Origin: Klebsiella phage ZCKP1 | Sequence record: MH252123.1 | DNA: 64,000 nt | Reading direction: 5' to 3' (one strand) | In this document: one piece after another, positions 24,909 to 64,000 of the stretch | How positions within the stretch are numbered: position 1 is the stretch's first letter | Layout: each line of letters starts with the position of its first letter | Translations under genes and position numbers: made by a program | Notes under the pieces: generated by a model | Databases searched by the model: none | Told to the model about the DNA's origin: nothing | The model's input: only the letters and a program-made list of their open reading frames with translations

Positions 24909-24917
24909 TAGTCCTCC

Positions 24918-33885: not shown

Positions 33886-33886
33886 A

Positions 33887-35089: not shown

Positions 35090-35284
35090 TTACTCCTCCT
35101 CATTGAAGTCAATATCTGCAAGGAGTTCGAATTTACGGAAGTTACGACAACCTTCATAAATATAACAATCACGACAAACTGCTAGAACACTTGGGGGATA
35201 TATACCTCCCATCGGTGCGAATCGTTTTTCGTCATCATAACGGACACCAATGTCTTCATCAATTATATAGATACGGATTCTCAT
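35090..35284 (-). CDS. hypothetical protein
   Basis: 64 aa. Confidence 0.3.
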   Translation of the reverse strand: MRIRIYIIDEDIGVRYDDEKRFAPMGGIYPPSVLAVCRDCYIYEGCRNFRKFELLADIDFNEEE

Positions 35285-36393
35285 TTACCAAGCCCTCGTT
35301 TCACAGCAGCTACCATCCCGTCTTCCAGAGATTGAACTTCATTAATATAATCAACACGAGCAGCACGGGCTTCCGTATTGATGCGGTTAGTTTCTTCCAA
35401 CATCTTAACCAAGTTTTCCTGATCGTGACGCAGAGTTTCAATATCCAACACTTGACGGTTAGCCAGTGCTGCTGCTTCGATCTGATTCTGTGTGGCAAGA
35501 TCGCTACCCAGTTTAATTGCCAGGTTAAATTCATCAAGAACGTTATTCTGCGTCTCTGCTGCTTTCATTTGACGTAAGCTCTCGATATACATTGAGAAGT
35601 TAGCAGAGTAAGCAGGAATAACATTATTTACTATGTTACGCGCAGATCGCATTAAGCTTGCAGAAACTTTTTGCATACCTTGTACACGCGGTCCCATTTG
35701 GACACACAGTAGGCGCAATGCTTTTAAATCTGCAATACGAATCTCCAGAAGATCCAAAGTATCTCGGATCACTTGTCGCTGTTCTACTGCATCTTCTGGA
35801 AGAGCAGCCAAAGCTTGTTCTTCTTTTTCATAGGTTGCTGTTAGAAGCTGCATATCTCGGTTCAAACTTGCAGCATATTGTCCAATAGCTTGATGTAGCT
35901 TTTCAAGATATACCAAGGAATCTTCTTCTTTGCGAATATCCATTTGAAGGTTCTTTACCAACTCTTCAATACGGTTATTAACATTATCAAACTCCCCAAA
36001 CAGGTCTTCTTTCATACCCATAACTTTTTTAATGAGTTTAGTAATACCCTTGCTTTGTTTAATAGAGTTTGGATCAAGTTGTTTTGCCTGTTTAATCAAA
36101 GCTGTGAGTCGTTCACTCATCTGATCGCCTTGATTACTACGTTGATGTTTTAATACCTCGGCATTCAAGGAACGCAAGGTTGTTCCTGCCTCTGCCCCAA
36201 TCTCTTCGATCTCTTGTCGGGTCATAGAAGGCAAAACTGGAACTTCTTGCGGTGCTGCTGGTGCATAAACAGGACTGGCATCTAACACACTTGGAGCGAA
36301 TACAGATTTACTTGCATCTGTTGTTGCAGCGAATACACTCATTTCAGACTTCTTCTGACCACCAGTAGCTGCTTTTAAAAATGGACTTGTCAT
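35281..36393 (-). CDS. TelA-like (toxic anion resistance/KlaA family) protein
   Basis: 370 aa and all-helical. It has long coiled-coil heptads and conserved blocks resembling TelA. It sits in a cluster with TerD, TerC and a vWA protein. Confidence 0.55.
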   Translation of the reverse strand: MTSPFLKAATGGQKKSEMSVFAATTDASKSVFAPSVLDASPVYAPAAPQEVPVLPSMTRQEIEEIGAEAGTTLRSLNAEVLKHQRSNQGDQMSERLTALIKQAKQLDPNSIKQSKGITKLIKKVMGMKEDLFGEFDNVNNRIEELVKNLQMDIRKEEDSLVYLEKLHQAIGQYAASLNRDMQLLTATYEKEEQALAALPEDAVEQRQVIRDTLDLLEIRIADLKALRLLCVQMGPRVQGMQKVSASLMRSARNIVNNVIPAYSANFSMYIESLRQMKAAETQNNVLDEFNLAIKLGSDLATQNQIEAAALANRQVLDIETLRHDQENLVKMLEETNRINTEARAARVDYINEVQSLEDGMVAAVKRGLGK

Positions 36394-36980
36394 TCTTCAT
36401 TCTCCTCTTCTGCATCTCTTATATATGGTGAAACACCGTACTCTTTAGCTACTTTAACCCAATCATCCCATTTATACAACCATAATTTTCCTTCAGTTCC
36501 TTCTTTATCTGATTTCAACCACATGTTAGGTTGCTTACCTGGGTACATGCGATTAGGTTTACGATTATAACCTCTAACACATCTTGTCGCAAACCTATCT
36601 ACCAGAACAAGAACATATTTATATTCGTGGTTCAACGGCTCTTTGGAAGTGGCTTTAGGATTAGCCCCTAATTCTGCTGCCAGTTTTTGCCAATGAGCAC
36701 CATGCCTACTAAACTTACCCATACAACCATCAATAGCGTGAGCAATTTCGTGCTTCATTGTATCCACGATCATATCTCTTGTGGAGTTCTTATGCAAGTG
36801 CCAATTTACAACAACAATCTTATCTCGGTAGTTGCACCAACCAAAAGAGTTATTCACTTTGTTTCTAACGCAAGCTTTATATCCTGCTTCACGTAACATG
36901 TTGTAGTAAACAGGAAAATCTTCTTTTATTTCCTGCATCACTTCCCACCACAAAAGTTGCAAGTCTCTCTCGGTATGCAT
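36390..36980 (-). CDS. SprT-like zinc metalloprotease domain protein
   Basis: HExxH motif (MKHEIAHAIDG) with a downstream His, and a Trp-rich N-terminus. Confidence 0.5.
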   Translation of the reverse strand: MHTERDLQLLWWEVMQEIKEDFPVYYNMLREAGYKACVRNKVNNSFGWCNYRDKIVVVNWHLHKNSTRDMIVDTMKHEIAHAIDGCMGKFSRHGAHWQKLAAELGANPKATSKEPLNHEYKYVLVLVDRFATRCVRGYNRKPNRMYPGKQPNMWLKSDKEGTEGKLWLYKWDDWVKVAKEYGVSPYIRDAEEENEE

Positions 36981-36983
36981 AAC

Positions 36984-37577
36984 TTACACCTTAAAAGTGA
37001 AATGCGTGGTCGTGGCTTCAAAATCAGGGCCAGATAAACGTGCACTGAAATCTGAAATATTTGTAATTAAAAAGCTTTTATGCATACCTAACACAGCCAC
37101 GCTTTCAATATCTTCTACTAACATTTCAATCATGTTAGAAACATGGCTGAACGTAGGGTTTTGTTTTTTGATGGTGTAGAAAGAAAGATTCTCACCTGCT
37201 GTATAAGATACCTCTTCAAAATCTTTAATCGTATATTGTGTGCCATCAGTAAAGAAAATGGTAGCTTTATTAGTAGCACGTTTCTTGTTTTTTGGTCCTT
37301 TTTTACGTTTACTGCGAGTAGGCAAACCGTTTGGGAACACCATAGCTACAAATTCTTCAGGAGAAACCTCCTTACCGAAATCATAACCATAAGAAACAGC
37401 ATCTATAAACTCGTCGTCTTCATTTTTAAAATAATGAAAATAAGGCCAATTTGAGAGATTATCAAGCATCTTATGCTCATCCACAGCAGAGAACGTATCC
37501 CTCAAAGCGCGTGTAATTTGCAAAGCATTAGGCAAACTTTTAACACCTGTAATGGAAGTACGAATAGAAATTGTCAT
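36984..37577 (-). CDS. hypothetical protein
   Basis: 197 aa. Confidence 0.4.
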   Translation of the reverse strand: MTISIRTSITGVKSLPNALQITRALRDTFSAVDEHKMLDNLSNWPYFHYFKNEDDEFIDAVSYGYDFGKEVSPEEFVAMVFPNGLPTRSKRKKGPKNKKRATNKATIFFTDGTQYTIKDFEEVSYTAGENLSFYTIKKQNPTFSHVSNMIEMLVEDIESVAVLGMHKSFLITNISDFSARLSGPDFEATTTHFTFKV

Positions 37578-37591
37578 TGTTTTTCTCCTTA

Positions 37592-38029
37592 TTAACGTCG
37601 CTTGCTACGAGATGAACTCTTTTTACTTAAAGGGCTATTGTAAGATTTACGAGTTGTATAGCTACTATTTGTTTTAAAAGTTTGTCTCGGCTTTTCATAA
37701 GTTTTTATCTCTTGTTTAGGCTTACCATAAAAATTAGTTTTCGGTTTAGGTGTATTATAATGCTTATTAATAATCGTTCTGTTATCGTTATAATCCCCAC
37801 TGTTACGATTACTACCACCACTCATCATATGCCCTAACAACATACCTGTAGCAAACTCACCAACACCGCTACTACTAGAACCGCCACCATTGTTGATAAT
37901 AGTTGTATCTCCGTCAGATCCTTGTTGAGCGTATTGTTGAGGAGGTTGTTGGTATTGTGCAGGATTTGTTTCATCCTCGCAAGCTGTTAAAAAGATACAA
38001 CCAATTAAAATCAGGGCTAGTTTTTTCAT
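37592..38029 (-). CDS. lipoprotein (Gly/Ser/Gln-rich)
   Basis: Start set at the ATG (MKKLALILIGCIFLTAC) at 38027-38029 with RBS AGGAAA. Lipobox is LTAC. The mature part is Q/P-rich then G/S-rich. Confidence 0.55.
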   Translation of the reverse strand: MKKLALILIGCIFLTACEDETNPAQYQQPPQQYAQQGSDGDTTIINNGGGSSSSGVGEFATGMLLGHMMSGGSNRNSGDYNDNRTIINKHYNTPKPKTNFYGKPKQEIKTYEKPRQTFKTNSSYTTRKSYNSPLSKKSSSRSKRR

Positions 38030-38216
38030 ATTTGCTTTCCTCATTTTGACTATTAATACATCTGTGTTTGAAATCTCCAGAGAAGCAATAAAGTTGCTCT
38101 CCATCTCGGTATAAACTTACTTTACTGCCGTTGATTACGCTTGTCAATACAAAAATTACAACAAACAACCCTATTGCAAAACAAATATTTTCAAACACAA
38201 TCAACAAGTATTTCAT
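37971..38216 (-). CDS. small membrane protein (N-terminal TM)
   Basis: 81 aa. Its TM helix (LLIVFENICFAIGLFVVIFVLTSV) overlaps the lipoprotein gene start in another frame. Confidence 0.3.
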   Translation of the reverse strand: MKYLLIVFENICFAIGLFVVIFVLTSVINGSKVSLYRDGEQLYCFSGDFKHRCINSQNEESKYEKTSPDFNWLYLFNSLRG

Positions 38217-38563
38217 TTTAAAAATACCTCATCATCAGTTTCATTATCCCAGAAGAACAAATCCCAACCATTCGGATCATTCCATTTGGCTGCTGGAGAA
38301 GTCCATATTTGTTCGATATCAATATTCAAAACTTCACCGTTTCGTTTTGAAACAGCTTTAGTTAATTCCCAATGAGATACAGGCTCTACTTCCCCTGAAC
38401 CACTCCCACAACAAGCTACCACGTTAGGAGGCAACTTAATTGGATCTTTGGTCACGATCATAACGCTTACCCCAGGGTAAACTTTTGAAAGATAATCTAA
38501 AACGTAATCCACATCACCAGATAAATCCCAAACAAGTTCTTGAATTTCATCAAAATTATTCAT
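38213..38563 (-). CDS. hypothetical protein
   Basis: 116 aa. Confidence 0.4.
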   Translation of the reverse strand: MNNFDEIQELVWDLSGDVDYVLDYLSKVYPGVSVMIVTKDPIKLPPNVVACCGSGSGEVEPVSHWELTKAVSKRNGEVLNIDIEQIWTSPAAKWNDPNGWDLFFWDNETDDEVFLK

Positions 38564-38579
38564 AAGTCTCTCCTATAAA

Positions 38580-38598
38580 ATAGCCTCCCGAAGGAGGC
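38580..38598 (-). terminator. rho-independent terminator downstream of terC
   Basis: On the - strand AGCCTCC ttcg GGAGGCT is followed by ATTTTATAGG. Confidence 0.5.
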
Positions 38599-38605
38599 TC
38601 ATCTA

Positions 38606-39580
38606 TTAAACAGCAGCTTCTTCTTTTTCAGGGAAGATAAAGCTTGCAATAACACCAAGAGCTAATGTGCCTAGAACAATCATCAGACTTACGTTAGGGG
38701 AAATATCATGCGGGAGGAATGACCACTTGGCATGAAGTGTTTCACCGAACGGGTGATACATAAGTTTAGCACCGACAAATACCAGAACCACAGCAACAGC
38801 CTTCTCTAAGTGAACCAGATATTTCACAGCCACACTTAACACAAAGAAAAGTGCACGTAAACCAAGAACAGCCATCAGCATTGCAGAATAAACTAGCAGA
38901 GGTTCTTGTGTCACACCGATCACAGCCGGAACTGAATCAAAAGAGAAGACAATATCTGTAAGCTCAATAACAAACACACAAAGAAGAGCAGGAGTTGCAT
39001 ATTTAATACCATTCTTAATGGTGATGAACTTTTCACCATCCAGTGCATTGTGCACAGGCAGAACTTTACCTACTAAACGAACAGCCCAATGTTTAGAGTA
39101 ATCAATATCCTCTTCTTCGTCACCACCTTTGATGATAGCCACGGCAGACCAAGCTACAATCAAACCGAACAACACTTGGACCGACCAATGAAGGTTAAAC
39201 AAAGCGGTCCCTGCTGCAACAAAAATACCTCGGAAGACAATGGCTCCTGCAATCCCCCAAAGTAAAATCTTATGTTGGAGATGTGTGCTCTTAATTCCAA
39301 AGCTTGCAAAAATTGCCATGAACACCATCAGGTTATCTACAGAAAGACTTTTTTCCAACACATAGCCACTTAGGAAAAGCGCGGCAAACTCTTTACCATG
39401 TTCTACCCAAATGAATGCGTAATATCCTAAAGCTAAAGCAATCCAAAAAACAGACCAAAGCAAAGCAGATTTAATTCCAATTTCTTTATTCTCTTTATGA
39501 CCAAAGAAATCGATACCAATAGACAATGCCAAAATACCAACTAAAACAACTACATCAATAATTGGGAAACCGAGTTGCAT
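38606..39580 (-). CDS. terC: TerC-family integral membrane protein
   Basis: 324 aa with about 9 TM helices and the TerC motif (DIVFSFDSVPAVIGVT). Confidence 0.7.
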   Translation of the reverse strand: MQLGFPIIDVVVLVGILALSIGIDFFGHKENKEIGIKSALLWSVFWIALALGYYAFIWVEHGKEFAALFLSGYVLEKSLSVDNLMVFMAIFASFGIKSTHLQHKILLWGIAGAIVFRGIFVAAGTALFNLHWSVQVLFGLIVAWSAVAIIKGGDEEEDIDYSKHWAVRLVGKVLPVHNALDGEKFITIKNGIKYATPALLCVFVIELTDIVFSFDSVPAVIGVTQEPLLVYSAMLMAVLGLRALFFVLSVAVKYLVHLEKAVAVVLVFVGAKLMYHPFGETLHAKWSFLPHDISPNVSLMIVLGTLALGVIASFIFPEKEEAAV

Positions 39581-39597
39581 TCTTTTCTCCTCTCTTT

Positions 39598-39659
39598 GCG
39601 GGGGAACTATTCCCCCCGCTTCATGTGATATATCTTACTCTTTTTAAGAACTATGTCAA
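39598..39659 (-). promoter_or_regulatory. early-type promoter (TTGACA-16-TAAGAT) plus 5' stem-loop module driving terC
   Basis: The - strand reads TTGACAtagttcttaaaaagagTAAGATatatcacatgaaGCGGGGGGaatagttCCCCCGCaaagagAGGAGaaaagaATG. This is the same module found before the early genes at 61.7-63.7 kb. Confidence 0.55.
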
Positions 39660-39662
39660 CAC

Positions 39663-39884
39663 TTATTTTGTTGAATGAGAGGAAAAGATTCCTCGTAATA
39701 CCGCCAAAATAAACGAAACACAAACCACGGTCCAGAAGGTTACTGGGACAGTGATATCTGCATGACCCATAACTTCAGCAACATAGTTGTAAGCCAGCAA
39801 CAGTAACCAAGCTGGAATCAAACTAAGCATAAAAGCAATAACAAAAAAGCTTACCACTGCAACAATACCTGCAAAAACACCCAT
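39663..39884 (-). CDS. small membrane protein (2-3 TM)
   Basis: 73 aa and very hydrophobic. Confidence 0.45.
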   Translation of the reverse strand: MGVFAGIVAVVSFFVIAFMLSLIPAWLLLLAYNYVAEVMGHADITVPVTFWTVVCVSFILAVLRGIFSSHSTK

Positions 39885-39896
39885 ACTAATCTCCTC

Positions 39897-40370
39897 TTAA
39901 AGTTTATAAATAGTCACATCGTGACCTGTTTTTACTAAAGTTTCTTCAATCATCACTTGGATGATAGCCCAATTACCTCCAGCATGTCCCGCTCCAATCA
40001 TAGGTAAACCGATCTTACATTTTTGGTCACGGAGAAGCAAATCATTAGCCATAGCTATTAGTGCATCGTACAAGGCATCATAGTCCAACTGACGACCTTT
40101 AGCATTATATCCGTAACGGTATTGCCCGTAGAGATTATATACCAAAGGGTCTGATTGTTCGTCTGGCACCCCTAAACTAAAAGAACCTAACTTACTTTGA
40201 TCACCAGCCATTGTGTCTAAATCTGCCGCATATGCATAAGGGAATGCTCGTTTAATTTGCGGAGCAATTCCTGCCCCCATATTACACATACAATTGCAAC
40301 AATGAGCAATAACAGTTACTTCACCTGCTTTAGCGGCATCAATAAGATTACCTGTTTTCATTTTAAGCAT
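39897..40370 (-). CDS. Macro domain protein (ADP-ribose binding/hydrolase)
   Basis: The GNLIDA...VIAHCCNCMCNMGAGIA and IGLPMIGAGHAGGNW blocks match macro domain motifs. The start was chosen at the ATG (MLKMK) that has RBS TAAGGAG. Confidence 0.6.
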   Translation of the reverse strand: MLKMKTGNLIDAAKAGEVTVIAHCCNCMCNMGAGIAPQIKRAFPYAYAADLDTMAGDQSKLGSFSLGVPDEQSDPLVYNLYGQYRYGYNAKGRQLDYDALYDALIAMANDLLLRDQKCKIGLPMIGAGHAGGNWAIIQVMIEETLVKTGHDVTIYKL

Positions 40371-40383
40371 TTTTAGCTCCTTA

Positions 40384-41211
40384 TTACAGAATGTGTTGTT
40401 TTGTGTAACGATCCAAGAATTCAAAGTTTTCAGCATACTTTGAAATTCGGTTGTAACCTTCTCCCAAACATCCGAAGAAAAGTTGCTCTACATAGTAGTG
40501 TGGCAATTGGCTAAGAATGATTTTGAAGTCTTCGTGATTTTGGCCCATAAGATACTTAATAGGACGAACAAGACACTGTGCATCACGTTCTTCATTAATC
40601 ATTTTAACAAACGCTTCTGGTGTATTAATATAATTAAAATTCAGTTTAGCTTCGGTATCTGCTTGATTACCTTCATATTTTGCAAAATACAAGAAGTAAA
40701 CATCATTTTTAACTTGATTTTCATCAAGGATCTCAATCAGTTTGTCTTCATGAGTTCCAGTGATATTTACATCATCAATAAACACAAGCTTCTTATCACC
40801 CCAGAATTCTTTGTTGCAGTAGAATGTATCCCCATCAATAAGTTTCTTACGACTAGCTTTATCCAAGAAACCATAATCGTTGATATAGCTAACTTTACGA
40901 TGAATAATATCTAGTTCTGCTGAACGACCTTGATCATATTGTGATTGCAACATATTAAAGTAATTAATAAAATGATCTGTCATCATTGTTGCAGCATTAT
41001 GCACATGGTTGTAAGGAGAAGGAATGATAACAAATTGTTCCCCAATATGTTTCATTGCCACTTGAGCAAAAAACTGAAGTGCCAATTCTTTACCCATACG
41101 ACGCGCAGCCTGGTTACTACCAAATTTCAATTTTGAATAATCTTTAATATCAAAAGTAGCAGTTTCCAGGTCATCAAATTTATTTGCAAAAATTTGAGTT
41201 TGATTACGCAT
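40384..41211 (-). CDS. phosphoribosyltransferase (PRTase type I-like)
   Basis: PRPP-binding motif KLVFIDDVNITGTH. Confidence 0.55.
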   Translation of the reverse strand: MRNQTQIFANKFDDLETATFDIKDYSKLKFGSNQAARRMGKELALQFFAQVAMKHIGEQFVIIPSPYNHVHNAATMMTDHFINYFNMLQSQYDQGRSAELDIIHRKVSYINDYGFLDKASRKKLIDGDTFYCNKEFWGDKKLVFIDDVNITGTHEDKLIEILDENQVKNDVYFLYFAKYEGNQADTEAKLNFNYINTPEAFVKMINEERDAQCLVRPIKYLMGQNHEDFKIILSQLPHYYVEQLFFGCLGEGYNRISKYAENFEFLDRYTKQHIL

Positions 41212-41881
41212 TTACAATTTCTCCTCTTTTAAGTTTCTCTAGTAAGTCGTTAGGGTTCTTAATATGACAGAAGTTAATACCTATGTCAACACATTTACCA
41301 TCAAATTCTTCGCTGTCCCCAACATGTAAAATCTCTTCAGCCTTCAAAGGAATGCTTGAATATGTGGCGGTCCTAACAAAGAATCTAGGATCTGGTTTAC
41401 ACAACAGATGTTCGTCTGAAAAATGCATAAATTCAAAACAATTCCAACTGTCGAACATGCAAGCACGACGCAAAATATCCCCAGATATAAAATTAGTATT
41501 GCTTTTAATACTAAGATCATATTTACCAGACAAGTATAGCAAACAAACTGGCAAATCTAAAGCAATATGTGGAGGAAATTTAAGAAACCATTGCTCACAC
41601 TCAAAACGCATTTGTGCAGATTCTACAGGGGTTAAACCTATCTTTCTTCCCAACATATTCCATGCATATGCTACACCTTCTGCACACCCATTTAGTGCAG
41701 CATTATCCATAATTTCTTTGGCATCTTTATATGCTTCTTTTGCCGCACGTTCAGACATTCTACCATATGTAGCAATAGTGTGCGTACGTGCATCTGCATA
41801 GTTTTGATTGGCAGAAATAAGAGTATTCCATACATCAAAAGAAATATGTTTTATTGTCATACTAGGCCCACCACGCATCAA
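41204..41881 (-). CDS. HAD-superfamily hydrolase
   Basis: Motif I-like FDVWNTL, motif III K-PDP and motif IV VGDSEEFD. Confidence 0.5.
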   Translation of the reverse strand: MMRGGPSMTIKHISFDVWNTLISANQNYADARTHTIATYGRMSERAAKEAYKDAKEIMDNAALNGCAEGVAYAWNMLGRKIGLTPVESAQMRFECEQWFLKFPPHIALDLPVCLLYLSGKYDLSIKSNTNFISGDILRRACMFDSWNCFEFMHFSDEHLLCKPDPRFFVRTATYSSIPLKAEEILHVGDSEEFDGKCVDIGINFCHIKNPNDLLEKLKRGEIVNA

Positions 41882-55904: not shown

Positions 55905-56069
55905 ATGATTTTAAACTTCATCATCAACTTGTGTTTGACATTGGGACTACTCTGTGCAATAGTATCCCCTCTGGTTGGTGAATATTGTTCTGAATTGGCG
56001 ATGTTTATAGTTCTTGGTGCGGCTATTGCTAATATGTTTGTCGCTGCGATTTGTATGTTGTGGGAATAG
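55905..56069 (+). CDS. small membrane protein (54 aa)
   Basis: ATG with RBS AGGAGAG. It has two hydrophobic helices and is below the ORF-track cutoff. Confidence 0.35.
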   Translation: MILNFIINLCLTLGLLCAIVSPLVGEYCSELAMFIVLGAAIANMFVAAICMLWE

Positions 56070-56080
56070 GAGGGAAGTTT

Positions 56081-56437
56081 ATGAAAAAATTAATCTTAGC
56101 CACATTGCTGGCTACCGTAAGCTTCACCACTTACGCTCAAAAATTTGTAGCAGTTAAAACGGATATTGGTAAAGATGTTGTGATCACAGGCAACAAGTTT
56201 TACTATACACCTGGGAATGGTGTTCTAGAAGAGTGCAAAGATGTTGAGGCATATACAGGAAAAGAAGATAACACGGAACGTCCTTTTTATTCGATTATAG
56301 CTACTTGCAAAAATGAAATAGTAGCTATTAAACAATACAAAGATGCACCTGGAGGAGAGTACTTATTAGTCAAGAATATTAAGAGTGAAAAAACTGCAAA
56401 GTTTACAGTAATTATTTTAAAAGGAGAAACGTTCTAA
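56081..56437 (+). CDS. secreted hypothetical protein
   Basis: Start set at MKKLILATLLATVSFTTYAQ (signal peptide) with RBS AGGAGGGAAG. Confidence 0.5.
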   Translation: MKKLILATLLATVSFTTYAQKFVAVKTDIGKDVVITGNKFYYTPGNGVLEECKDVEAYTGKEDNTERPFYSIIATCKNEIVAIKQYKDAPGGEYLLVKNIKSEKTAKFTVIILKGETF

Positions 56438-57576
56438 TGAAATACACTATTTTTGGAGATGTAGCTGTTGTAAATAAGGAATATGGCGTTGAAGCTAATA
56501 AACTTCCTGCTGGAGTTTGGGTTGTCAACTGCGATCCGCACGGTAACTACTCTTTAGTGCGTGGCGAAAGTTTCTCTCTTCCGAACACTCTTTATGGGGA
56601 AACTAAAGATCGCGCCGCACATGTTATTAAAACATTTGCTCGTCGTAGTAAAGAAGGTAAAAATACTGGGGTGTTACTGACAGGGACAAAAGGCAGTGGT
56701 AAGACGATGTTAGCTAAACTGATTAGCATGTCTCTAATGTCCACAGAAGGTTTAGGTATTCCAACCATTTTGGTTACACAGCCTTACACAGATGCTGGCT
56801 TCTTAGAATTTATGAGTAAAATTACAGATCGTGCTGTTGTTTTATTTGACGAATTTGATAAAGTGTACGCTAAGAAAGAAGATCAGGAAGCACTGTTGAC
56901 CTTGTTGGATGGAACAGGAAGTGGGAATAAACTTTACATCCTCACTAAAAATAGTGGTTATATCTCGGAATATTTTGTAAACCGTCCTAGTCGTATCTAC
57001 TACAGTTTCAATTACGATAAACTGTCTAGTGAAACTATGTTAGATTACTTGGATAAGAACTTGGTAAATAAAAAGCACGTAGATAACTTCCAACGTTTAT
57101 GGGATGTTAGCACAGAGTTGTCTTTCGATGTTATTCAAGGCATTGTAGAAGAATTGAATTTCTATCCAAAAATGACTTTTAAAGAATGTCTTGAAATGAT
57201 GGGTATTTCTTTAGGGAACGATGCTAAATGGAATGTGGCTTCTATCGTAGCTAATGGCAAAACCTTGAAGGTGAATTGGATCAATAACTGGCACGACTTC
57301 ACCCCTACTAAGTTTTTGTCGGGTGCTTGTTCCCTGAACATCTATCTACAAAGTTTGAAAGATGATGAAGTGGAAGCAATGGAAACCAACAGTTATGTTA
57401 TCCTGGATGAAGATGGTGATCCACATATTGATCTATGTGCAACGGCTGATGGTCTAACTTGTGATCTGATTGAAGGTGGTAAGATTCTGGTTATGAGCAC
57501 TACACCAGGAAACACTTTGCGAGTGGTGCTGGAGCCTGTAACACAACGTTCCACTACACTTGGTAGCGTGTTCTAA
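56437..57576 (+). CDS. AAA+ ATPase
   Basis: Walker A (LLTGTKGSGKTMLAKLI) and Walker B (VVLFDEFDKV). Confidence 0.6.
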   Translation: MKYTIFGDVAVVNKEYGVEANKLPAGVWVVNCDPHGNYSLVRGESFSLPNTLYGETKDRAAHVIKTFARRSKEGKNTGVLLTGTKGSGKTMLAKLISMSLMSTEGLGIPTILVTQPYTDAGFLEFMSKITDRAVVLFDEFDKVYAKKEDQEALLTLLDGTGSGNKLYILTKNSGYISEYFVNRPSRIYYSFNYDKLSSETMLDYLDKNLVNKKHVDNFQRLWDVSTELSFDVIQGIVEELNFYPKMTFKECLEMMGISLGNDAKWNVASIVANGKTLKVNWINNWHDFTPTKFLSGACSLNIYLQSLKDDEVEAMETNSYVILDEDGDPHIDLCATADGLTCDLIEGGKILVMSTTPGNTLRVVLEPVTQRSTTLGSVF

Positions 57577-57579
57577 TAA

Positions 57580-57603
57580 AGATGCCCCGCAAGGGGCATT
57601 TGT
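57580..57603 (+). terminator. rho-independent terminator
   Basis: Stem GATGCCCC gcaa GGGGCAT followed by TTGTTAT. Confidence 0.55.
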
Positions 57604-57664
57604 TATGGAGGGATTTTAGTTATTCTTTTGTTGTAGGCTCGCACTAATAGCTAAAGGGGGAGGT

Positions 57665-59125
57665 GTGCCAAAAATAGTCACTTGGGAACAATATAAAACA
57701 GATATAAAACAAGCTTATCAAGGTAAGTCTTGGACTGTTGTAGATTATATTGAGCCGTGGAACGGCAATAAAACTAAACTTAGATGCATCTGTGCTCTGC
57801 ATGGAGAATGGAAAACAACAAGCATAAATACCGCTAAACTAGGGAGGGGTTGTCCAGAATGCGGTAGGGAGATTATAAGTAAAGCAGTATCTATAAACAA
57901 ATCAAAAACCTGGGAGCAATATAAAGAAGAAGTGCAAACCACTTACAATCAGGCAGGTAAGTTTTGGACTGTTACAGGATGGCACGGAGAATGGAAAGGA
58001 TGGAATACTAAACTGGTTTGTTGTTGTGCTTTACATGGGGAGTGGAGGTCTACTTCTATATCTTCTGCGAAAAACGGGAGTGGATGCAGGAAGTGTATGG
58101 GAGAAGCAAACAGAGAAAGAACATCGATTGCATGGGAGAAACATAAAGAAGAAGTAGAAGAAGCTTATAAAGAAAAACCCTGGATTGTTAGAGGCTATGT
58201 GGAACCGTGGAACGGTTCCCGCACTAAGTTGATTTGTGAGTGTAAGGTTCATGGTCAATGGTGCACTACCACTGTAAACAGTGCTAAACAAGGGACTGGA
58301 TGCTACAGTTGTCAAAGAGAAATGACGAAACAAAGGAATACAATGGAGGATAAACAACATGTTGAAGATTTTATAAAAGCTTGTCCTGATAATGTAGAGC
58401 GTAAATATTATCGTAGCGATAGAGTAGATAGATTAGGTCGTCAGGTTTACTGGATTGTAGAATGTCCTATATGTGCAGAGGATGATTATTGTAAAGAAGG
58501 CTTATGCGATAATAAATTTGAGATGAAGATGAGTCATTTGAAAAGGGGTGGCCTTCCTTGCCGTTGTTCTAAATATTATCATTACACTCCTGAACAATGG
58601 GCCTACCGTATGACCAAAGCTTGCCAGGAACGAGGGGATCAATTTATAGGATTCATTGATAAGGTAAGCAATAACAGCAAGTTTAAATATCTATGTAGGG
58701 AGCATGGAGAGCAAACGATCACACCTACCGATTATCTCAATGGGAAAGGTTGTCCAGGCTGTAAGAACAGAAATATGCAAGAATTTTACATCAATATTAT
58801 TCTTGATGAGTACGGAGAAGACACGGGAGCTTACAAGTTGGGGATTGCAAAGGACAGTGATATCAGGATCAAAGGGCAGAATGCAAACAACAATTACTCT
58901 ATGCGCCGTATAGCATTGTTCGATCTGCCGTCCTACCAAGCTTGCAGGGCGTTAGAGAGTAAGCTAAAGTCTAAGACTGATCAGATTCTACCGTCTATTG
59001 GCTGTGTAGAACGCTTGCACATGAAAGATGGTCATAGTGAAACCTTCCTGCGCGAGGATTTGGCTATCGTCTTAAGTGCTATCAACCAAGCAGGTGGAAT
59101 AATGAGAGAGGAGGAAACATGTTAG
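57665..59125 (+). CDS. tandem Cys-rich (zinc-ribbon-like) repeat protein with C-terminal T5orf172/GIY-YIG-like domain
   Basis: Three and a half repeats of about 73 aa follow the pattern W..YK..(9)W.V..Y.EPWNG..TKL.C.C..HGEW.TT......G.GC..C. The C-terminus (YKLGIAKDSDIRIKGQNANNNYSMRRIALFDLP...ALESKLKS) resembles T5orf172. It has a GTG start with RBS AAGGGGGAGG. Confidence 0.5.
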   Translation: MPKIVTWEQYKTDIKQAYQGKSWTVVDYIEPWNGNKTKLRCICALHGEWKTTSINTAKLGRGCPECGREIISKAVSINKSKTWEQYKEEVQTTYNQAGKFWTVTGWHGEWKGWNTKLVCCCALHGEWRSTSISSAKNGSGCRKCMGEANRERTSIAWEKHKEEVEEAYKEKPWIVRGYVEPWNGSRTKLICECKVHGQWCTTTVNSAKQGTGCYSCQREMTKQRNTMEDKQHVEDFIKACPDNVERKYYRSDRVDRLGRQVYWIVECPICAEDDYCKEGLCDNKFEMKMSHLKRGGLPCRCSKYYHYTPEQWAYRMTKACQERGDQFIGFIDKVSNNSKFKYLCREHGEQTITPTDYLNGKGCPGCKNRNMQEFYINIILDEYGEDTGAYKLGIAKDSDIRIKGQNANNNYSMRRIALFDLPSYQACRALESKLKSKTDQILPSIGCVERLHMKDGHSETFLREDLAIVLSAINQAGGIMREEETC

Positions 59126-59484
59126 TTGACGTTCAAATTATGCGCAACGAAAGAATGGACTTCTTTGAAGCAGTAGAGAAACATCTGATCAGATGGGACT
59201 ATGAATTTGTTCCTGCTGGATGTGGACCAGTAGAGCATTTAGCGGAAGACGACGATGTATACATGATCATTCGTCAAGTGTACCAGACAGACCAGTGTGA
59301 AGAAACTCCCGAACTGATTTTGTTTGAGTGTAAAGATCTTGCAAAATATTTTGACTATGGCGGAAAAGAGGGTCATAATCTCTCCAGATACAATAAACGT
59401 CTACTTATCTTAGACTACATGCGGAACAACAAACACAAACTCATCGACGCAGACGCAGTTTATGGCTACTGGTGGATGGATTAA
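59119..59484 (+). CDS. hypothetical protein
   Basis: 121 aa. Confidence 0.4.
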   Translation: MLVDVQIMRNERMDFFEAVEKHLIRWDYEFVPAGCGPVEHLAEDDDVYMIIRQVYQTDQCEETPELILFECKDLAKYFDYGGKEGHNLSRYNKRLLILDYMRNNKHKLIDADAVYGYWWMD

Positions 59485-59497
59485 CAAAGGAGAAACT

Positions 59498-59686
59498 ATG
59501 GCACGTTTAGCAGACCATGAAATCTTTAAACCTATTCTGAACCACTATGATGAACTTAAAGCAGTGTTGGATTGTTATAGAGAGGATGAAGAACGTTTGG
59601 AAATCAATCTTAAGATAGTTCTGATGAAAGCTTTTCAAGACGGGCAAGCTAAAGTCTTAGAAGGCATGAAAAATGAGAATAACTGA
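59498..59686 (+). CDS. hypothetical protein
   Basis: Start set at the ATG (MARLADHEIF) that has RBS AAAGGAG. Confidence 0.4.
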   Translation: MARLADHEIFKPILNHYDELKAVLDCYREDEERLEINLKIVLMKAFQDGQAKVLEGMKNENN

Positions 59687-60215
59687 CGAATATGTATTCT
59701 TCTTTTCACATAAAGATGTGTTTAGTAATTGGTATATTGCACCCTTTACAGAAACCGAACCAGGTTACAATCAGACATTTAATTGTGTCGAACAATACAT
59801 GATGTGGCGTAAAGCTTTGCTTTTTAATGATCACAACACTGCACAGGCTATTCTGACTCATAGTTTGATACGGAAAGATGAGAAGATCCAAGCTTATTAC
59901 AAACGTATGGGTAGGGCAGTGTCGGATTTTGATAACAACGTATGGGAAGAGAACCGTGAGCGTATTGTTATGCGAGGTTTATGCTTGAAATATGTACAGA
60001 ATCCAGATTTGTATGCAGACTTACACCTTTACCAATACAAAACGTTTGTTGAAGCAAGTCCTTACGATAAGGTTTACGGTATTGGAATGGGAATGTATGA
60101 ACCAGGGGTGCTAAATCCGGTCAACTGGAAAGGGCAGAATCTTTTAGGCAAATATCATAACAAACTGATCGAAATACTTTTCCCAGACAAAATACCGCAA
60201 AGACGATATTTGTGA
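59673..60215 (+). CDS. NADAR (YbiA/DUF1768) domain protein
   Basis: FFSHKDVFSNWYIAPFTETE...FNCVEQYMMWRKALLFND matches the NADAR signature (F-FSNF...F...EQ..M..KA..F.D). Confidence 0.65.
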   Translation: MRITDEYVFFFSHKDVFSNWYIAPFTETEPGYNQTFNCVEQYMMWRKALLFNDHNTAQAILTHSLIRKDEKIQAYYKRMGRAVSDFDNNVWEENRERIVMRGLCLKYVQNPDLYADLHLYQYKTFVEASPYDKVYGIGMGMYEPGVLNPVNWKGQNLLGKYHNKLIEILFPDKIPQRRYL

Positions 60216-60270
60216 TATTTTAACTTTTTTCATTTTTAGAACAAAGGCGTCACTTTGTAGCACAGAAATA

Positions 60271-60306
60271 AGGCTCCTACAGCACCGTAGAGAGCCTATT
60301 ATTTTG
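60271..60306 (+). terminator. terminator after the NADAR gene
   Basis: Stem AGGCTC...GAGCCT followed by ATTATTTTG. Confidence 0.4.
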
Positions 60307-60457
60307 TCCTATACAAACCCTTGTCTTTTTCAGTTTGCATCACTAGGATTCGATCTGAGTGGGTTCCTGAAGGTCTGCCAATAAGATTAAAGGTTATCTC
60401 AAATTCCCATTACCTATTATCTCAAAAATCCCTCAAATTATTTAAACTTTTTAAGAA

Positions 60458-60644
60458 TTTACAAAAGTGAAAGTTGAAAACCAAAATTTAAAGTTTAGGA
60501 AAATTATCTTAAAATGTCAGATACAAAACAAAACTCAAAAGTCAAGGAAAATTTTAAAAATTTTGCGCGCCCACAGTATTTAAAGTTTTTTTGCTTTTAC
60601 AAAAATGAAAGTACAAAAGCAAAATTTAAAGTTTACAAAAATTT
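60458..60644. repeat. two about 48-bp AT-rich direct repeats (60458-60505 and 60597-60644) plus short TATCTCAAA repeats upstream
   Basis: tttacaaaagtgaaagttgaaaaccaaaatttaaagtttaggaaaatt versus tttacaaaaatgaaagtacaaaagcaaaatttaaagtttacaaaaatt, about 40/48 identical. Confidence 0.6.
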
Positions 60645-60655
60645 ATGCAGATGGG

Positions 60656-60762
60656 AATGAGAAGAGTTCTCATATGGAAATGCAAATGATAATGATTCGC
60701 ATTTAGGTTTATAAATGAGATTGATTCTTATTTGATAAGGTAAATGATAATCATTCTCATTT
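60656..60762. promoter_or_regulatory. array of four about 20-bp palindromic operator-like sites, Fur-box-like
   Basis: The sites are AATGAGAAGAGTTCTCATAT (60656), AATGATAATGATTCGCATTT (60685), AATGAGATTGATTCTTATTT (60713) and AATGATAATCATTCTCATTT (60743). They are spaced 28-30 bp apart. The last is a near-consensus Fur box (GATAATGATAATCATTATC). Confidence 0.5.
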
Positions 60763-60994
60763 AGAAAATGACGCGCAGGGGCGGTGTTTGTCTCGCGCTC
60801 CCGTGTCCCCTCGCCATGTAATAAGAATAACAGATCCAGCCAGGAAAGCAAGCGATTATTTTATCTTTACATTTCTTTACAAATATATAGCGCCCAGCCT
60901 ACCGGCGATCAACCTTCCAACCAGTGCCCCTGGTATGTTAGCCCCGCCTTTACGCCGTGGGGTGGCGCTTCCTCTTCTGTATGTAAAACAGTAT

Positions 60995-61034
60995 AAGCCC
61001 GATCCCTGGGCTTGTCAAGATTATTTTTTGTTTT
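60995..61034. terminator. stem-loop plus T-tract (candidate bidirectional terminator)
   Basis: AAGCCC gatccct GGGCTT followed by gtcaagaTTATTTTTTGTTTT. Confidence 0.4.
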
Positions 61035-61287
61035 CTTGCCAGGATAGGACACCTAACCAAAAATACATATCGCCCCGCGCCCCTGGTGGGATCTTGCTTT
61101 CCCCGCCGCCACTGCAAGCCCATAGATAACCATTTGCGAACGTATCAAAATGATCTATCTCTTCCACCTTATGATCGCCCAGGTTGAGAACGGTTTCAAC
61201 CTTTAAGCCCGTTGCGCTTGCTACCTGGTGCACCGTGCCGCCTTGCCAGCCCAATGAGTGCATAAGGTGTAATGTAGTATTTGTCAT
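61021..61287 (-). CDS. hypothetical protein (88 aa) in GC-rich island
   Basis: ORF with RBS AAAGGGCG. Candidate promoter on the - strand is TTGCTA-17-TATCAT at about 61335-61365. Its GC content is much higher than the phage average. Confidence 0.35.
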   Translation of the reverse strand: MTNTTLHLMHSLGWQGGTVHQVASATGLKVETVLNLGDHKVEEIDHFDTFANGYLWACSGGGESKIPPGARGDMYFWLGVLSWQENKK

Positions 61288-61396
61288 GGTATCGCCCTTT
61301 CTTTGATGTGCGCCCTGGTTGGCGCGGTAGAAAGATGATAGCCCTTTCTTTTATATATAGCAAGCAAAAAGAAAATAAAAAAGATTGAAAAAGTGG

Positions 61397-61425
61397 TTGA
61401 CGTTCCTCACCTGGTAGCGTAGTAT
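61397..61425 (+). promoter_or_regulatory. sigma70 promoter (TTGACG-17-TAGTAT) with A/T-rich UP-like element upstream
   Basis: It is followed by a leader of about 130 nt before the ATG at 61561. Confidence 0.5.
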
Positions 61426-61560
61426 TCATCTTGTCGAGGGGGGCGCGGCACAACGACAATAAACAACAGGAGGGCGCAATGTAGGACGGGCAAAGGTGAG
61501 GATCTCCATAATCCACCGTCCACCAACAAAAAACATCATTCATCACCTGGAGTTAAAATC

Positions 61561-61758
61561 ATGGCAACATTGCACATAGTAGCGAAAGCAGGACAAATCA
61601 GCGTCGTGGTAAACGGTTTTACTGAGTTCAGTCATCCCCAGGATGATCATGAAACGGTTTTATCTTTTATTGATTCCTTGTTAGAAATGGGAGTCATTAC
61701 AGAAGACCAGCACGCTACAAAATGCAAGCGCGTTAATCAAATTGCAGGGATAGAATAA
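61561..61758 (+). CDS. early small protein
   Basis: 65 aa, RBS GGAG. Confidence 0.45.
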   Translation: MATLHIVAKAGQISVVVNGFTEFSHPQDDHETVLSFIDSLLEMGVITEDQHATKCKRVNQIAGIE

Positions 61759-61764
61759 AAAGTA

Positions 61765-61823
61765 TTGACAACAAACAACAACCTGATAAGATGTATCACA
61801 TAGGGCGGGAAGTGGTTTCCCGC
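61765..61823 (+). promoter_or_regulatory. early promoter module P1 (TTGACA-16-TGaTAAGAT, then conserved TATCACATAGGGCGG and a stem-loop)
   Basis: -35 at 61765-70 and extended -10 at 61784-92. The hairpin GGGCGGGAAgtggTTTCCCGC lies at 61803-61823. Confidence 0.6.
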
Positions 61824-61848
61824 TCGTAACAGAAGAGAGATTATCATC

Positions 61849-62121
61849 ATGGCATCATATAGCGCAACAATGATCGTAGCTGGCACAACTGGTAAACCTA
61901 TGAGCGGTGGCGGATCTTTCGCTAATATCAATATTGACGGGCGTTTATCCCTGGACGCAGCGATCGCCATTGCACGGGAAACATTTAAGAAAGAATGTAA
62001 TTTCAACAAGCAAGATTATCTCGGTTTCGCTATTGAAAAAACCGCGCGCTTTGTTGATTATAAAAGCCCGAAAATGGTTGACACTACATTAAAAGCGCAA
62101 GATGTAGCGTTTTTGCTTTAA
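61849..62121 (+). CDS. early small protein
   Basis: 90 aa, RBS AGAAGAGAG. Confidence 0.45.
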   Translation: MASYSATMIVAGTTGKPMSGGGSFANINIDGRLSLDAAIAIARETFKKECNFNKQDYLGFAIEKTARFVDYKSPKMVDTTLKAQDVAFLL

Positions 62122-62124
62122 GGC

Positions 62125-62180
62125 TTGACATTAACGAATAATTTGTTAATATGTTACATAAAGCGGGAATAGTTCCCGCT
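62125..62180 (+). promoter_or_regulatory. early promoter module P2 (TTGACA-16-TAATAT plus stem-loop AGCGGGAAtagTTCCCGCT)
   Basis: -35 at 62125-30 and -10 at 62147-52. The hairpin lies at 62162-62180. Confidence 0.55.
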
Positions 62181-62197
62181 GTTTGTAAGGTGGTAGA

Positions 62198-62455
62198 ATG
62201 TTTTACATCAAATTAAAAGGTCACGTGATCGCGTTCAAAGATAACGCTTTTTACAGATTAGCAAAATATGCGTTAATACATCCCCACTATGTTTATATAA
62301 GGGGGCGTGATGAAATAAATATCTTTGATCAAACAACATGCGAAAACATCGAGATCCGCAAGGTTGGCGTACGTGATTATCGTACATCTTTCTACCCTTG
62401 CAAGGATTCAGCAAGTCTTTTTAAAGTATGCCAATTGTTGAAAAAAGGTGGTTAA
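62198..62455 (+). CDS. early small protein
   Basis: 85 aa, RBS AAGGTGG. Confidence 0.45.
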   Translation: MFYIKLKGHVIAFKDNAFYRLAKYALIHPHYVYIRGRDEINIFDQTTCENIEIRKVGVRDYRTSFYPCKDSASLFKVCQLLKKGG

Positions 62456-62456
62456 T

Positions 62457-63014
62457 ATGGGCCGCGAATATGTGATCCAGTCTTGGGTAAAACACGAAGC
62501 AGATGATCCGCGCATCATTCCCGATCATCTTATCGATGAATCCACGGGATATAGCGGTGAGCAAATAGGTAACAGATCAGCACGTAGTAACGGCAACGTA
62601 AAAGCGCGCTATGTGCGCCCTGGTTGGCTGGCAAATGGTAACGCTGATTTATCCAGCGCGGGAGATCCTAGCGACGGCGCGAAAGATAATCCCTTGTACA
62701 AAGTTGATCCGGCTTTTCGTGTCCTGGATGAATACCCCAGCAAGATAGCGGCGCTTGATGAAGCTCTGGAAAGTAAGCGCATCACCTGGACCGCTTACAA
62801 CATGGCAAAAAACGTACTTGATGGTAAGCTGATCCAGGCTGAAAGAAAATTAGCCAAAATTGCAGCCATAGCCCAGGAGGAAGACGAGGAGACAACGGAA
62901 GAGGAAGAGTACGAAGAGATCCCGCCGTTGTTGTGTGTTGATGCTTTTCCTGATTATCAGCCGACAGAGGAAGAAAAAAGGATCGCGCTAGAAAACTTTG
63001 AAAATAGTCTTTGA
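62457..63014 (+). CDS. early protein with strongly acidic C-terminal region
   Basis: Start at ATG 62457 with RBS AAGGTGG. It ends in a poly-Glu/Asp tail (EEDEETTEEEEYEE). Confidence 0.45.
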   Translation: MGREYVIQSWVKHEADDPRIIPDHLIDESTGYSGEQIGNRSARSNGNVKARYVRPGWLANGNADLSSAGDPSDGAKDNPLYKVDPAFRVLDEYPSKIAALDEALESKRITWTAYNMAKNVLDGKLIQAERKLAKIAAIAQEEDEETTEEEEYEEIPPLLCVDAFPDYQPTEEEKRIALENFENSL

Positions 63015-63069
63015 CATATCGCCGCCACTGGCATAATATTTACCACGTAGGGCGGCAATGGTGCCGCTC
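63011..63069 (+). promoter_or_regulatory. early promoter module P3 (TTGACA-17-TAATAT plus TTACCACGTAGGGCGG and a stem-loop)
   Basis: -35 at 63011-16 and -10 at 63034-39. The hairpin GGGCGGCAatggtGCCGCTC lies at 63050-63069. Confidence 0.55.
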
Positions 63070-63097
63070 ATAGTGAAATTATGCAAGAGGTTTACAA

Positions 63098-63193
63098 TGA
63101 TTAATAAAGAAAATAGCTTGACGGTTGGAACGATTAACGCTATCATTTTCGCCGTTCCATTTTGGGTTGTAGTAGCGGCTATTATTTTCTAAA
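63098..63193 (+). CDS. small membrane peptide (31 aa)
   Basis: ATG with RBS AGAGG. It has a hydrophobic segment (AIIFAVPFWVVVAAIIF). Confidence 0.3.
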
Positions 63194-63201
63194 AAATATT
63201 C

Positions 63202-63262
63202 TTGACAACGTTTTTTAATCTGATAAGATGTATCACATAGGGCGGCGGAATACTTCCCCGCC
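63202..63262 (+). promoter_or_regulatory. early promoter module P4 (TTGACA-16-TGaTAAGAT plus TATCACATAGGGCGG and a stem-loop)
   Basis: Nearly identical to P1. The hairpin GGCGGCGGAAtacTTCCCCGCC lies at 63241-63262. Confidence 0.6.
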
Positions 63263-63283
63263 AAAACAAAAAAGGGTAACACA

Positions 63284-63646
63284 ATGAGCAAGCAAATCAA
63301 TACTATCATGTTTAATCTGGTATCTTTCCGCGATGATATGAAAAATTTACCACGTGAAACGGTTGATATTCATGTTTCAGCTTATCGCGCCCTTATTGAT
63401 ATGTTACCGCTAAAACGTGATCAACATGCCGCTAATATGATGCTTAATGCTATGCTTAAAAAGATGATTCAAACGGATCTTACCCTGGCATATGAGTATC
63501 AAGGGCGCTTATATGCAACTTACAACAGAGCGGTACCTGGTCTGGGAAGTACTGAAGAGTTGCACGGCTTAAACCTGGATCAAAACACTTGGGATAGTAT
63601 GCGCCGCGTTATGGTATGGGCCGAAAGCGGTAAAATTTACGAATAA
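63284..63646 (+). CDS. early small protein
   Basis: 120 aa, RBS AAGGG. Confidence 0.45.
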   Translation: MSKQINTIMFNLVSFRDDMKNLPRETVDIHVSAYRALIDMLPLKRDQHAANMMLNAMLKKMIQTDLTLAYEYQGRLYATYNRAVPGLGSTEELHGLNLDQNTWDSMRRVMVWAESGKIYE

Positions 63647-63652
63647 AAACGG

Positions 63653-63712
63653 TTGACACTGTTTAAAATTCTAGTATAGTTTACCACATAGGGCGGGAAA
63701 TGGTTTCCCGCC
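63653..63712 (+). promoter_or_regulatory. early promoter module P5 (TTGACA-16-TATAGT plus TTACCACATAGGGCGG and a stem-loop)
   Basis: The hairpin GGGCGGGAAatggTTTCCCGCC lies at 63691-63712. Confidence 0.6.
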
Positions 63713-63734
63713 AACAATGAAAAAGGTTATCATC

Positions 63735-64000
63735 ATGGCTATTAATATTAATGTTTCCTCTTATGCTACCCTGGCTAACACGGCTAAAATTGAATTATCC
63801 AGCATTGAGGCGGTGCATATTAGCGCCCGTCGCTGGTTCCAACAGTCCTACGGTAATACATATTTTTCTTTAATGGTTGACGTTGAGATCGGCGGTAAAC
63901 TGATCGAGGTGGTTAACGTTCCGTTTCAATATGGCTATGGTGATCATTTTGATACCGTCGCCCTGGAAGAGTTTAGCAAGGTTATCAACCTGGAGGGCAA
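63735..64000 (+). CDS. early small protein (3' end truncated by the window)
   Basis: ATG with RBS AAAAAGG. The frame is open to the window end. Confidence 0.4.
   Translation, partial: MAININVSSYATLANTAKIELSSIEAVHISARRWFQQSYGNTYFSLMVDVEIGGKLIEVVNVPFQYGYGDHFDTVALEEFSKVINLEG

Follow-up and report, generated by a model that had tools for sequence, protein, structure and literature searches.

A predicted AdfN^Bas60-type NADAR protein and a separately encoded macrodomain protein in Klebsiella phage ZCKP1

Does the NADAR gene of a phage serve to remove ADP-ribose that a host toxin has placed on the phage DNA, and does a macrodomain gene encoded apart from it take part in the same task? The question arises for Klebsiella phage ZCKP1 (sequence record MH252123.1), of which a stretch of 64,000 nucleotides (nt) was analysed; this whole stretch is called the window below. 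A sequence-only reading of the window had proposed that a NADAR domain protein and a separately encoded macrodomain protein are candidates for the reversal of DarT-type ADP-ribosylation, and had joined to them a phosphoribosyltransferase (PRTase) and a HAD hydrolase as a toolkit for ADP-ribose metabolism. The gene at the centre of the question is the following.

59673..60215, + strand: NADAR gene, an ATG-to-stop open reading frame (ORF) of 180 amino acids (aa), predicted to encode an orphan ADP-ribosylglycohydrolase of the AdfN^Bas60 type

The ORF of 180 aa that had been placed at 59673 was found exactly, and the NADAR/YbiA motifs quoted for it are present in its translation. The protein matches the NADAR family PF08719 with a score of 123 bits (cut-off 35.1; E = 1.8e-35), and the alignment spans 152 of the 163 profile positions (3-154). 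This match is far beyond chance. It also matches PHROG 1017 at 5e-52. A model made with AlphaFold2 from a 64-sequence alignment had a mean predicted local distance difference test score (pLDDT) of 95.5 and a predicted template modelling score (pTM) of 0.89. When this model was compared with the PDB using Foldseek, the matches were 8BAU (template modelling (TM) score 0.79/0.75, probability 1.0) and YbiA, 2B3W (TM score 0.68/0.73), both of the NADAR superfamily, and no match below E = 1 was returned beyond these two. A profile search and a structure prediction had been suggested earlier as checks of the NADAR identity; both agree with it, and the NADAR fold is present.

The structure 8BAU is that of the Phytophthora nicotianae NADAR with ADP-ribose, where the ligand is held by E43, K50, R79, W89, R93, E125, D130 and W133 (PMC11543638, Schuller et al. 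2023). Hydrolysis requires E43, K50 and the residue at the E125 position (8BAU numbering; PMC11543638). In the alignment to 8BAU, the first seven of these residues correspond to E40, K47, R81, W91, R95, E127 and D132 of the window protein, and five of the seven (E40, K47, W91, E127 and D132) showed no variation across 64 homologues. The pair E40/K47 has the spacing Glu-x6-Lys and is equivalent to E43/K50 of 8BAU and to E36/K43 of the T4 protein. On the strength of family, fold and residues, we consider it very likely that the gene product is an active NADAR ADP-ribosylglycohydrolase.

The E125 position also marks the subfamily: YbiA-type NADARs and stand-alone NADARs have Glu there, DarG1 has Asp and T4-type NADARs have His (PMC11543638). 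In the window protein the residue at this position is Glu (E127). Run against the PDB, the family profile gave 121.8 bits for 8BAU, 64.8 bits for YbiA and no other NADAR chain at E <= 1, and T4 gp30.3 had no BLASTP similarity to the window protein at E <= 10. Because of the Glu, the preference of the profile for 8BAU and the lack of similarity to T4 gp30.3, the protein is assigned to the stand-alone NADAR family and is neither DarG1-type nor T4-type. With 8BAU, and with the stand-alone family in general, it has in common the fold, the ADP-ribose-contacting residues and the Glu at the E125 position. It differs from 8BAU in that the identity is only 29-33%, in having an insertion of its own at approximately residues 60-75, and in having no oomycete-specific extension. 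To T4 gp30.3 (AdfN^T4) and DarG1 the likeness is one of superfamily, and of proposed chemistry and purpose, namely to take ADP-ribose off DNA guanine. However, the T4-type proteins carry His where the window protein carries E127, which sets it apart from that type, and DarG1 has Asp at this position, is encoded beside DarT1 and has an N-terminal basic extension. None of these three features was found for the window NADAR, whose conserved core begins at about residue 4 with no N-terminal segment before it.

NADAR proteins outside the T4-like phages were reported by Johannesman et al. (Nat Commun 2025), including AdfN^Bas60, encoded by the BASEL phages Bas60-62 (PMC11825919). We identified the Bas60 gene using the BASEL paper together with tblastn. 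It is bas60_0111 (QXV83846.1) of phage PaulScherrer (MZ501100), annotated as 'putative YbiA-like N-glycosidase', and the protein it encodes shares 59% identity with the window NADAR over 172 aa (E = 4e-69). Bas60-62 are phi92-like phages, sister to the phAPEC8 group (Maffei et al.); their genus is now Justusliebigvirus, and their subfamily, Stephanstirmvirinae, is also that of the window phage. A placement of Bas60-62 in Vequintavirus was considered and is ruled out by the phi92-like assignment (Maffei et al.); the NADARs of Vequintavirinae, e.g. that of LTH01, are only 38% identical.

The window itself is assigned to Phapecoctavirus, in the phAPEC8-like group of E. coli myoviruses, with E. 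coli as the host. The 6 kb around the NADAR gene are 97-98% identical to many Phapecoctavirus genomes (ESCO25, ESCO13, Schickermooser), and the NADAR protein has the same sequence as phAPEC8_00256 (100% identity). Copies with at least 80% identity were found in 69 phage records, and homologues of any degree in 717 records. The window has in common with phi92-like phages the gene order ATPase, CapR-type endonuclease, NADAR and a long non-coding stretch. A neighbour-joining distance tree built from 69 NADARs placed the Phapecoctavirus clade as sister to the clade with AdfN^Bas60, and 8BAU, YbiA and T4 gp30.3 were progressively more distant. Because of the 59% identity, the matching gene position and the sister clades, we take the window NADAR to be the Phapecoctavirus orthologue of the published anti-DarT1 factor AdfN^Bas60 and, by this orthology, a member of the AdfN class of the Bas60 type. 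The two proteins are alike in length class, catalytic residues, gene position and subfamily, and in a Trp-to-Tyr change at the position of 8BAU W133. The window protein differs in being 7 residues shorter in the N-terminal hairpin, and the Phapecoctaviruses in having two additional small ORFs between the endonuclease and NADAR.

According to the report on AdfN^Bas60, this protein neutralised DarT1 in E. coli when expressed alone, without phage. With it, RB69, T5 and Bas25 plated again on DarTG1 hosts, whereas T5 was not rescued from DarTG2 (PMC11825919). The same report states that AdfN^T4 depends on the T-even context, unlike AdfN^Bas60. The present analysis thus establishes the gene, the protein fold, the residues of the active site, and the orthology and common gene order with AdfN^Bas60; the neutralisation of DarT1 and the rescue of phages come from the literature on the orthologue. 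We infer the same activity and role for the window NADAR. Its gene would be transcribed at the end of a rightward block that consists of small non-structural genes. In a cell bearing DarTG1, host DarT1 would put ADP-ribose on the N2 of guanine in the phage DNA; the NADAR would bind the guanine-linked ADP-ribose and cut the N-glycosidic bond, giving free ADP-ribose and normal guanine. With the guanine restored, replication and transcription would go on in DarTG1-carrying E. coli. The target would be the modification rather than the toxin, and the thymidine marks of DarT2 would be left in place. Counter-defence against DarT1 is probably the main role of the window NADAR. By orthology this anti-DarT reading is well supported, and it is not new: the identification of the NADAR is correct, and it changes nothing in what is known of how phages counter DNA ADP-ribosylation.

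Several points weigh against this assignment of role. The window protein and AdfN^Bas60 differ in 41% of their residues, and at the position of 8BAU W133 both have Tyr in place of the ADP-ribose-contacting Trp. NADAR subfamilies with a common activity in vitro vary in DarT1 rescue in cells (PMC11125620). For AdfN^Bas60, the Results section and Discussion consulted present ectopic expression only and do not describe a deletion in the native phage (PMC11825919). Early expression of the window gene is inferred from gene position only. The protein also scores 112 bits against a cut-off of 73.7 on TIGR02464, the NCBIfam model of the riboflavin-intermediate N-glycosidase domain. Finally, the main natural target may not be DarT1, and the range of targets may be wider, because stand-alone NADAR-family enzymes, unlike DarG1 and T4 NADAR, in vitro also act on cytidine and RNA, from which they strip ADP-ribose (PMC12945103).

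This last point leads to the alternative in which the main target is something other than DarT1-modified DNA, i.e. cytidine-ADP-ribose, RNA-ADP-ribose, or a soluble ADP-ribose-derived signal or toxin of another defence system, so that the anti-DarT1 effect would be a facet or a side activity. It draws on the grouping of the window NADAR with the stand-alone family by the profile, on the in vitro activities of that family, and on the argument of Iyer et al. that phage NADAR and Macro domains process mostly low-molecular-weight ADP-ribose derivatives (PMC9503650). Furthermore, the best PADLOC match of the window NADAR is a component of the candidate defence system PDC-M42C, on which AdfN^Bas60 scores alike. 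Against this, the nearest tested relative is reported to neutralise DarT1 and to rescue phages from DarTG1 in vivo (PMC11825919), and the literature consulted yields no cytidine-modifying or RNA-guanosine-modifying defence of E. coli that the NADAR would counter. We therefore regard a main target other than DarT1-modified DNA as unlikely, though it is to be reckoned with. Likewise, it is rather improbable that the window NADAR is more than an anti-DarT1 enzyme in the sense of the stand-alone family, by acting also on cytidine and RNA.

The TIGR02464 score bears on another alternative, a YbiA-like housekeeping N-glycosidase that destroys reactive intermediates of the riboflavin pathway. Several annotations in related records ('GTP cyclohydrolase II', 'YbiA-like N-glycosidase') point in the same direction. 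However, the model does not discriminate here, as AdfN^Bas60 scores 109 bits, nearly the same as the window NADAR, and yet is reported to counter DarT1 (PMC11825919). The profile fits 8BAU far better than YbiA, the BLASTP alignment to YbiA has 29% identity over 96 aa only, and the scanned neighbours include no riboflavin genes. A housekeeping role of this kind is thus very improbable, and counter-defence against DarT1 is kept as the preferred role. The TIGR02464 match probably explains the annotation 'YbiA-like N-glycosidase' in relatives. Public labels on NADAR relatives are misleading in several forms ('GTP cyclohydrolase II', 'swarming motility protein', 'DNA methyltransferase'); the first of them probably derives from the name of a subsystem for RibA fusions.

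A third alternative is that the NADAR erases ADP-ribosylation written by the phage itself, for instance by a Sir2-like protein of the phAPEC8 type, and would then serve self-regulation instead of counter-defence. The annotation of phAPEC8 (JX561091) does contain a Sir2-like protein of 266 aa, phAPEC8_0072, at 24129-24929, and in T4-like phages NADAR genes are expressed together with phage ADP-ribosyltransferases (PMC9503650). The Sir2-like gene is outside the window, however, and in phAPEC8 it is found at 24.1-24.9 kb, whereas NADAR is at 141.95 kb. No ADP-ribosyltransferase adjoins the NADAR: Pfam scans of its neighbours gave no ADP-ribosyltransferase, DarT or other ADP-ribose-related domain. 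AdfN^Bas60, in addition, is reported to counter the host toxin without any phage factor (PMC11825919). We find an eraser of the phage's own marks highly unlikely. Since the neighbours carry no such domain, the NADAR is an orphan, outside any toxin-antitoxin pair. The Sir2-like protein of phAPEC8 is a possible NAD+-consuming or ADP-ribosylating enzyme and could be a partner, or the target context, for the NADAR or the macrodomain protein.

The second half of the question concerns the macrodomain protein, encoded here:

39897..40370, - strand: macrodomain protein of the TARG1/DarG/SCO6735 class, separately encoded, 157 aa

The ORF that had been described as a macro domain protein at 39897-40370 is present, on the - strand, and its family is backed by PHROG 335 (1e-55), by the PADLOC model of DarG and by the PDB structure of SCO6735. 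The match to Pfam Macro is marginal (23 bits against a cut-off of 22). The PADLOC DarG match, at 1.6e-10, is limited to positions 1-144 of the 329-position model, i.e. the macrodomain part, and in the NCBIfam DarG model the macrodomain part alone is matched as well. The PDB matches were SCO6735 (1e-12; 32% identity), BT1257, Taq DarG (9e-7) and TARG1. The C-terminal DarT-binding domain of DarG2 is not present in the 157 aa. A start at 40370 is likely, because the N-terminus then aligns with residue 1 of Taq DarG and 13 nt are left after the PRTase stop.

The protein carries H23, N26 and Q83. N26 aligns with N22 of Taq DarG, and Q83 is at the site of the catalytic Lys (K80 in DarG, K84 in TARG1), where it aligns with Q85 of SCO6735 and with the Gln of T4 Tk.4. 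In SCO6735, Q85 is essential for stripping thymidine-linked ADP-ribose from DNA (PMC9411070), and Tk.4, renamed AdfM, is by genetic evidence an anti-DarTG2 factor, needed for the growth of T4 on DarTG2 hosts (bioRxiv 10.1101/2025.11.20.689424). The window protein is 37% identical to Tk.4/AdfM. A different activity is known from Adpp of Vibrio phage Gary, which dephosphorylates ADP-ribose-1''-phosphate, after which NARP1 rebuilds NAD+ against RES-type defence (bioRxiv 10.64898/2026.01.28.702374). The macrodomain protein of phage Direpillow8, encoded between Adps and Namat, shares 41% identity with the window protein (E = 2e-36); the Direpillow8 protein is in turn 94.3% identical to the macrodomain protein at the same position in Vibrio phage Gary, which was taken as Adpp. 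Tk.4/AdfM, Adpp and SCO6735 all resemble the window protein in being single macrodomains of about 155 aa with Gln at the position of DarG K80 and TARG1 K84. The relatives closest to it outside the enterobacterial phages, approximately 40% identical and found in Vibrio Thalassavirus and Pseudomonas Pakpunavirus, lie in or beside Adps/Namat (NARP1) operons.

Unlike Adpp, the window macrodomain gene is outside an Adps-Namat operon and sits between TerC and the HAD-PRTase_3 pair. A tblastn search for Adps and Namat, covering the window and phAPEC8 positions 1-83000, gave short matches only, the best with E = 0.029. Membership in NARP1-AP (Adps-Adpp-Namat) was rejected because no Adps or Namat homologue was found in this range, and for the same reason a protein acting as Adpp would lack a NARP1 partner here. 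The macrodomain protein is a candidate AdfM-like hydrolase of thymidine-linked ADP-ribose in DNA, a candidate Adpp-like phosphatase of ADP-ribose-1''-phosphate, or both. The anti-DarT2 reading is plausible and not better supported than the phosphatase reading. One phage macrodomain family, PHROG 335 including Tk.4/AdfM, thus has two different published counter-defence roles.

The NADAR and macrodomain genes are 19 kb apart and on opposite strands. Nothing joins them physically, and the link between them is conceptual only. The sequence-only reading, in which the two together form a candidate system for reversing DarT-type ADP-ribosylation, accordingly holds in part: homology speaks for it (59% identity to AdfN^Bas60 and 37% to AdfM), but the macrodomain protein is ambiguous, being 41% identical to the Adpp type. 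A NADAR and a Gln-type macrodomain in one phage are not new, as T4 has both AdfN and AdfM.

The PRTase and the HAD hydrolase that had been counted as part of the ADP-ribose toolkit both exist. They are found in a leftward block with the following genes.

33091-33885, - strand: vWA-TerF-like protein, PF10138
35281-36393, - strand: TelA, PF05816
36390-36980, - strand: SprT-like protein
38606-39580, - strand: TerC/Alx, PF03741
40384-41211, - strand: PRTase_3, ComF-like, PF15610
41204-41881, - strand: HAD hydrolase, PF00702

After HAD in the leftward block comes an anaerobic ribonucleotide reductase, and the order of the block is matched in Justusliebigvirus phage Eryne. A small membrane ORF is also found within the module 33091-41881. 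For the Ter system it has been proposed that PRTases and HAD phosphoesterases synthesise the signal, and modules of this kind are known from jumbo phages (PMC7824862). Homologues of the PRTase_3 protein, 46-55% identical, were found in many large phage-like contigs. In three unrelated contigs of this kind, a gene of HAD size was directly upstream of the PRTase in all three, with a HAD-family match recorded in two; TelA, vWA-TerF, TerC and TerD were adjacent to the HAD-PRTase_3 pair in 2/3, and a macrodomain homologue within 7 kb of the pair in 0/3. On this last count, the idea that the macrodomain protein is a conserved part of the HAD-PRTase_3 module was rejected; its place beside the pair is specific to this phage subfamily. 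The PRTase and HAD genes belong together as a conserved pair in a Ter-like module carried by the phage (TelA, TerC, vWA-TerF), and since the pair recurs with Ter genes in 2/3 contigs and has no macrodomain homologue within 7 kb in 3/3, the two genes fall outside an ADP-ribose toolkit. NARP3 was considered as the home of the PRTase, HAD and macrodomain genes and set aside, as NARP3 consists of PnuC and NadR. In the literature, superinfection exclusion has been proposed as the purpose of Ter-like modules in phages. PRTase_3 is mislabelled 'Zot-like toxin' or 'orotate phosphoribosyltransferase' in related records.

Phapecoctaviruses are in development for use in therapy and biocontrol against avian-pathogenic and extended-spectrum beta-lactamase (ESBL)-producing E. 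coli. The combination of a probable anti-DarTG1 enzyme with a macrodomain protein that is possibly anti-DarTG2 or processes ADP-ribose-1''-phosphate aids the prediction of host range on strains that carry DarTG or RES-type defences. The analysis also corrects public labels, both for NADAR ('GTP cyclohydrolase II', 'swarming motility protein') and for the PRTase ('Zot-like toxin').

The signals and neighbours of the NADAR gene are as follows.

56437-57576, upstream of NADAR: AAA ATPase
57665-59125, + strand: CapR-domain endonuclease of 486 aa with five CapR-homology repeats, PHROG 681
Between the CapR endonuclease and NADAR: two small ORFs without family match
59660..59664, + strand: ribosome-binding-like GAAGG, 8 nt before the NADAR ATG, read from the sequence
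60271..60305, + strand: intrinsic-terminator-like hairpin and T-run, AGGCTCctacagcaccgtagaGAGCCT then ATTATTTTG, 56 nt past the NADAR stop

NADAR is the last gene of a rightward block on the + strand, made up mostly of small genes and starting at about 53992, just past the point of divergence from the leftward genes. Its start overlaps the end of a 74-aa ORF (59462-59686), which suggests translational coupling with this upstream ORF. The annotation of phAPEC8 has a terminator at the position equivalent to the hairpin at 60271-60305. Ten small neighbouring ORFs gave nothing meaningful with Pfam at E <= 0.1. No tRNA was found in the whole window using ARAGORN, and no RNA family in 56000-64000 by an Rfam E-value scan. 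Relatives of the AAA ATPase are mislabelled 'FtsH-like protease'. At the endonuclease, phAPEC8 lacks a DNA counterpart of window positions 57580-59093, while the flanks are approximately 97% identical; phAPEC8 carries at this site a shorter gene of 394 aa, a different allele. The CapR endonuclease at 57665-59125 is a replaceable, homing-endonuclease-like cassette.

A non-coding stretch of approximately 800 bp follows NADAR. Its AT-rich part (29% GC) contains two 72-nt direct repeats at 60434-60643, which are 82% identical and 138 nt apart, each with AAAATTTAAAGTTTA at the end. Four palindromic boxes of the type AATGA-N9-TCATT are located at 60656-60766 with a spacing of 29 nt (AATGAGAAGAGTTCTCAT, AATGATAATGATTCGCATT, AATGAGATTGATTCTTATT and AATGATAATCATTCTCATT). 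The last box overlaps a match with 3 mismatches to the E. coli Fur-box consensus; by chance, 0.02 such matches would be expected. Near-consensus boxes, AATGAGAATCATTATCATT, are found at the same relative place after NADAR in the phi92-like phages Bas60 and PD06. The boxes may serve as a Fur-regulated promoter or as an operator array, or they may be iterons of an origin.

The boxes are followed by a GC-rich stretch (51%) at 60771-61130 without a convincing ORF. Structured RNA in this stretch was unconvincing (folding z-scores of -2.4 for the + strand and +0.3 for the - strand), and there was no Rfam match. The annotations of related phages conflict here: phAPEC8 has an ORF on the + strand equivalent to window 60788-61129 (113 aa), and ESCO13 has one on the - strand (88 aa) equivalent to window 61021-61287, with no family match for either. 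On the - strand, a strong promoter of the sigma-70-like type (TTGACA-17-TATACT, 61018-60990) is directed into the GC-rich stretch.

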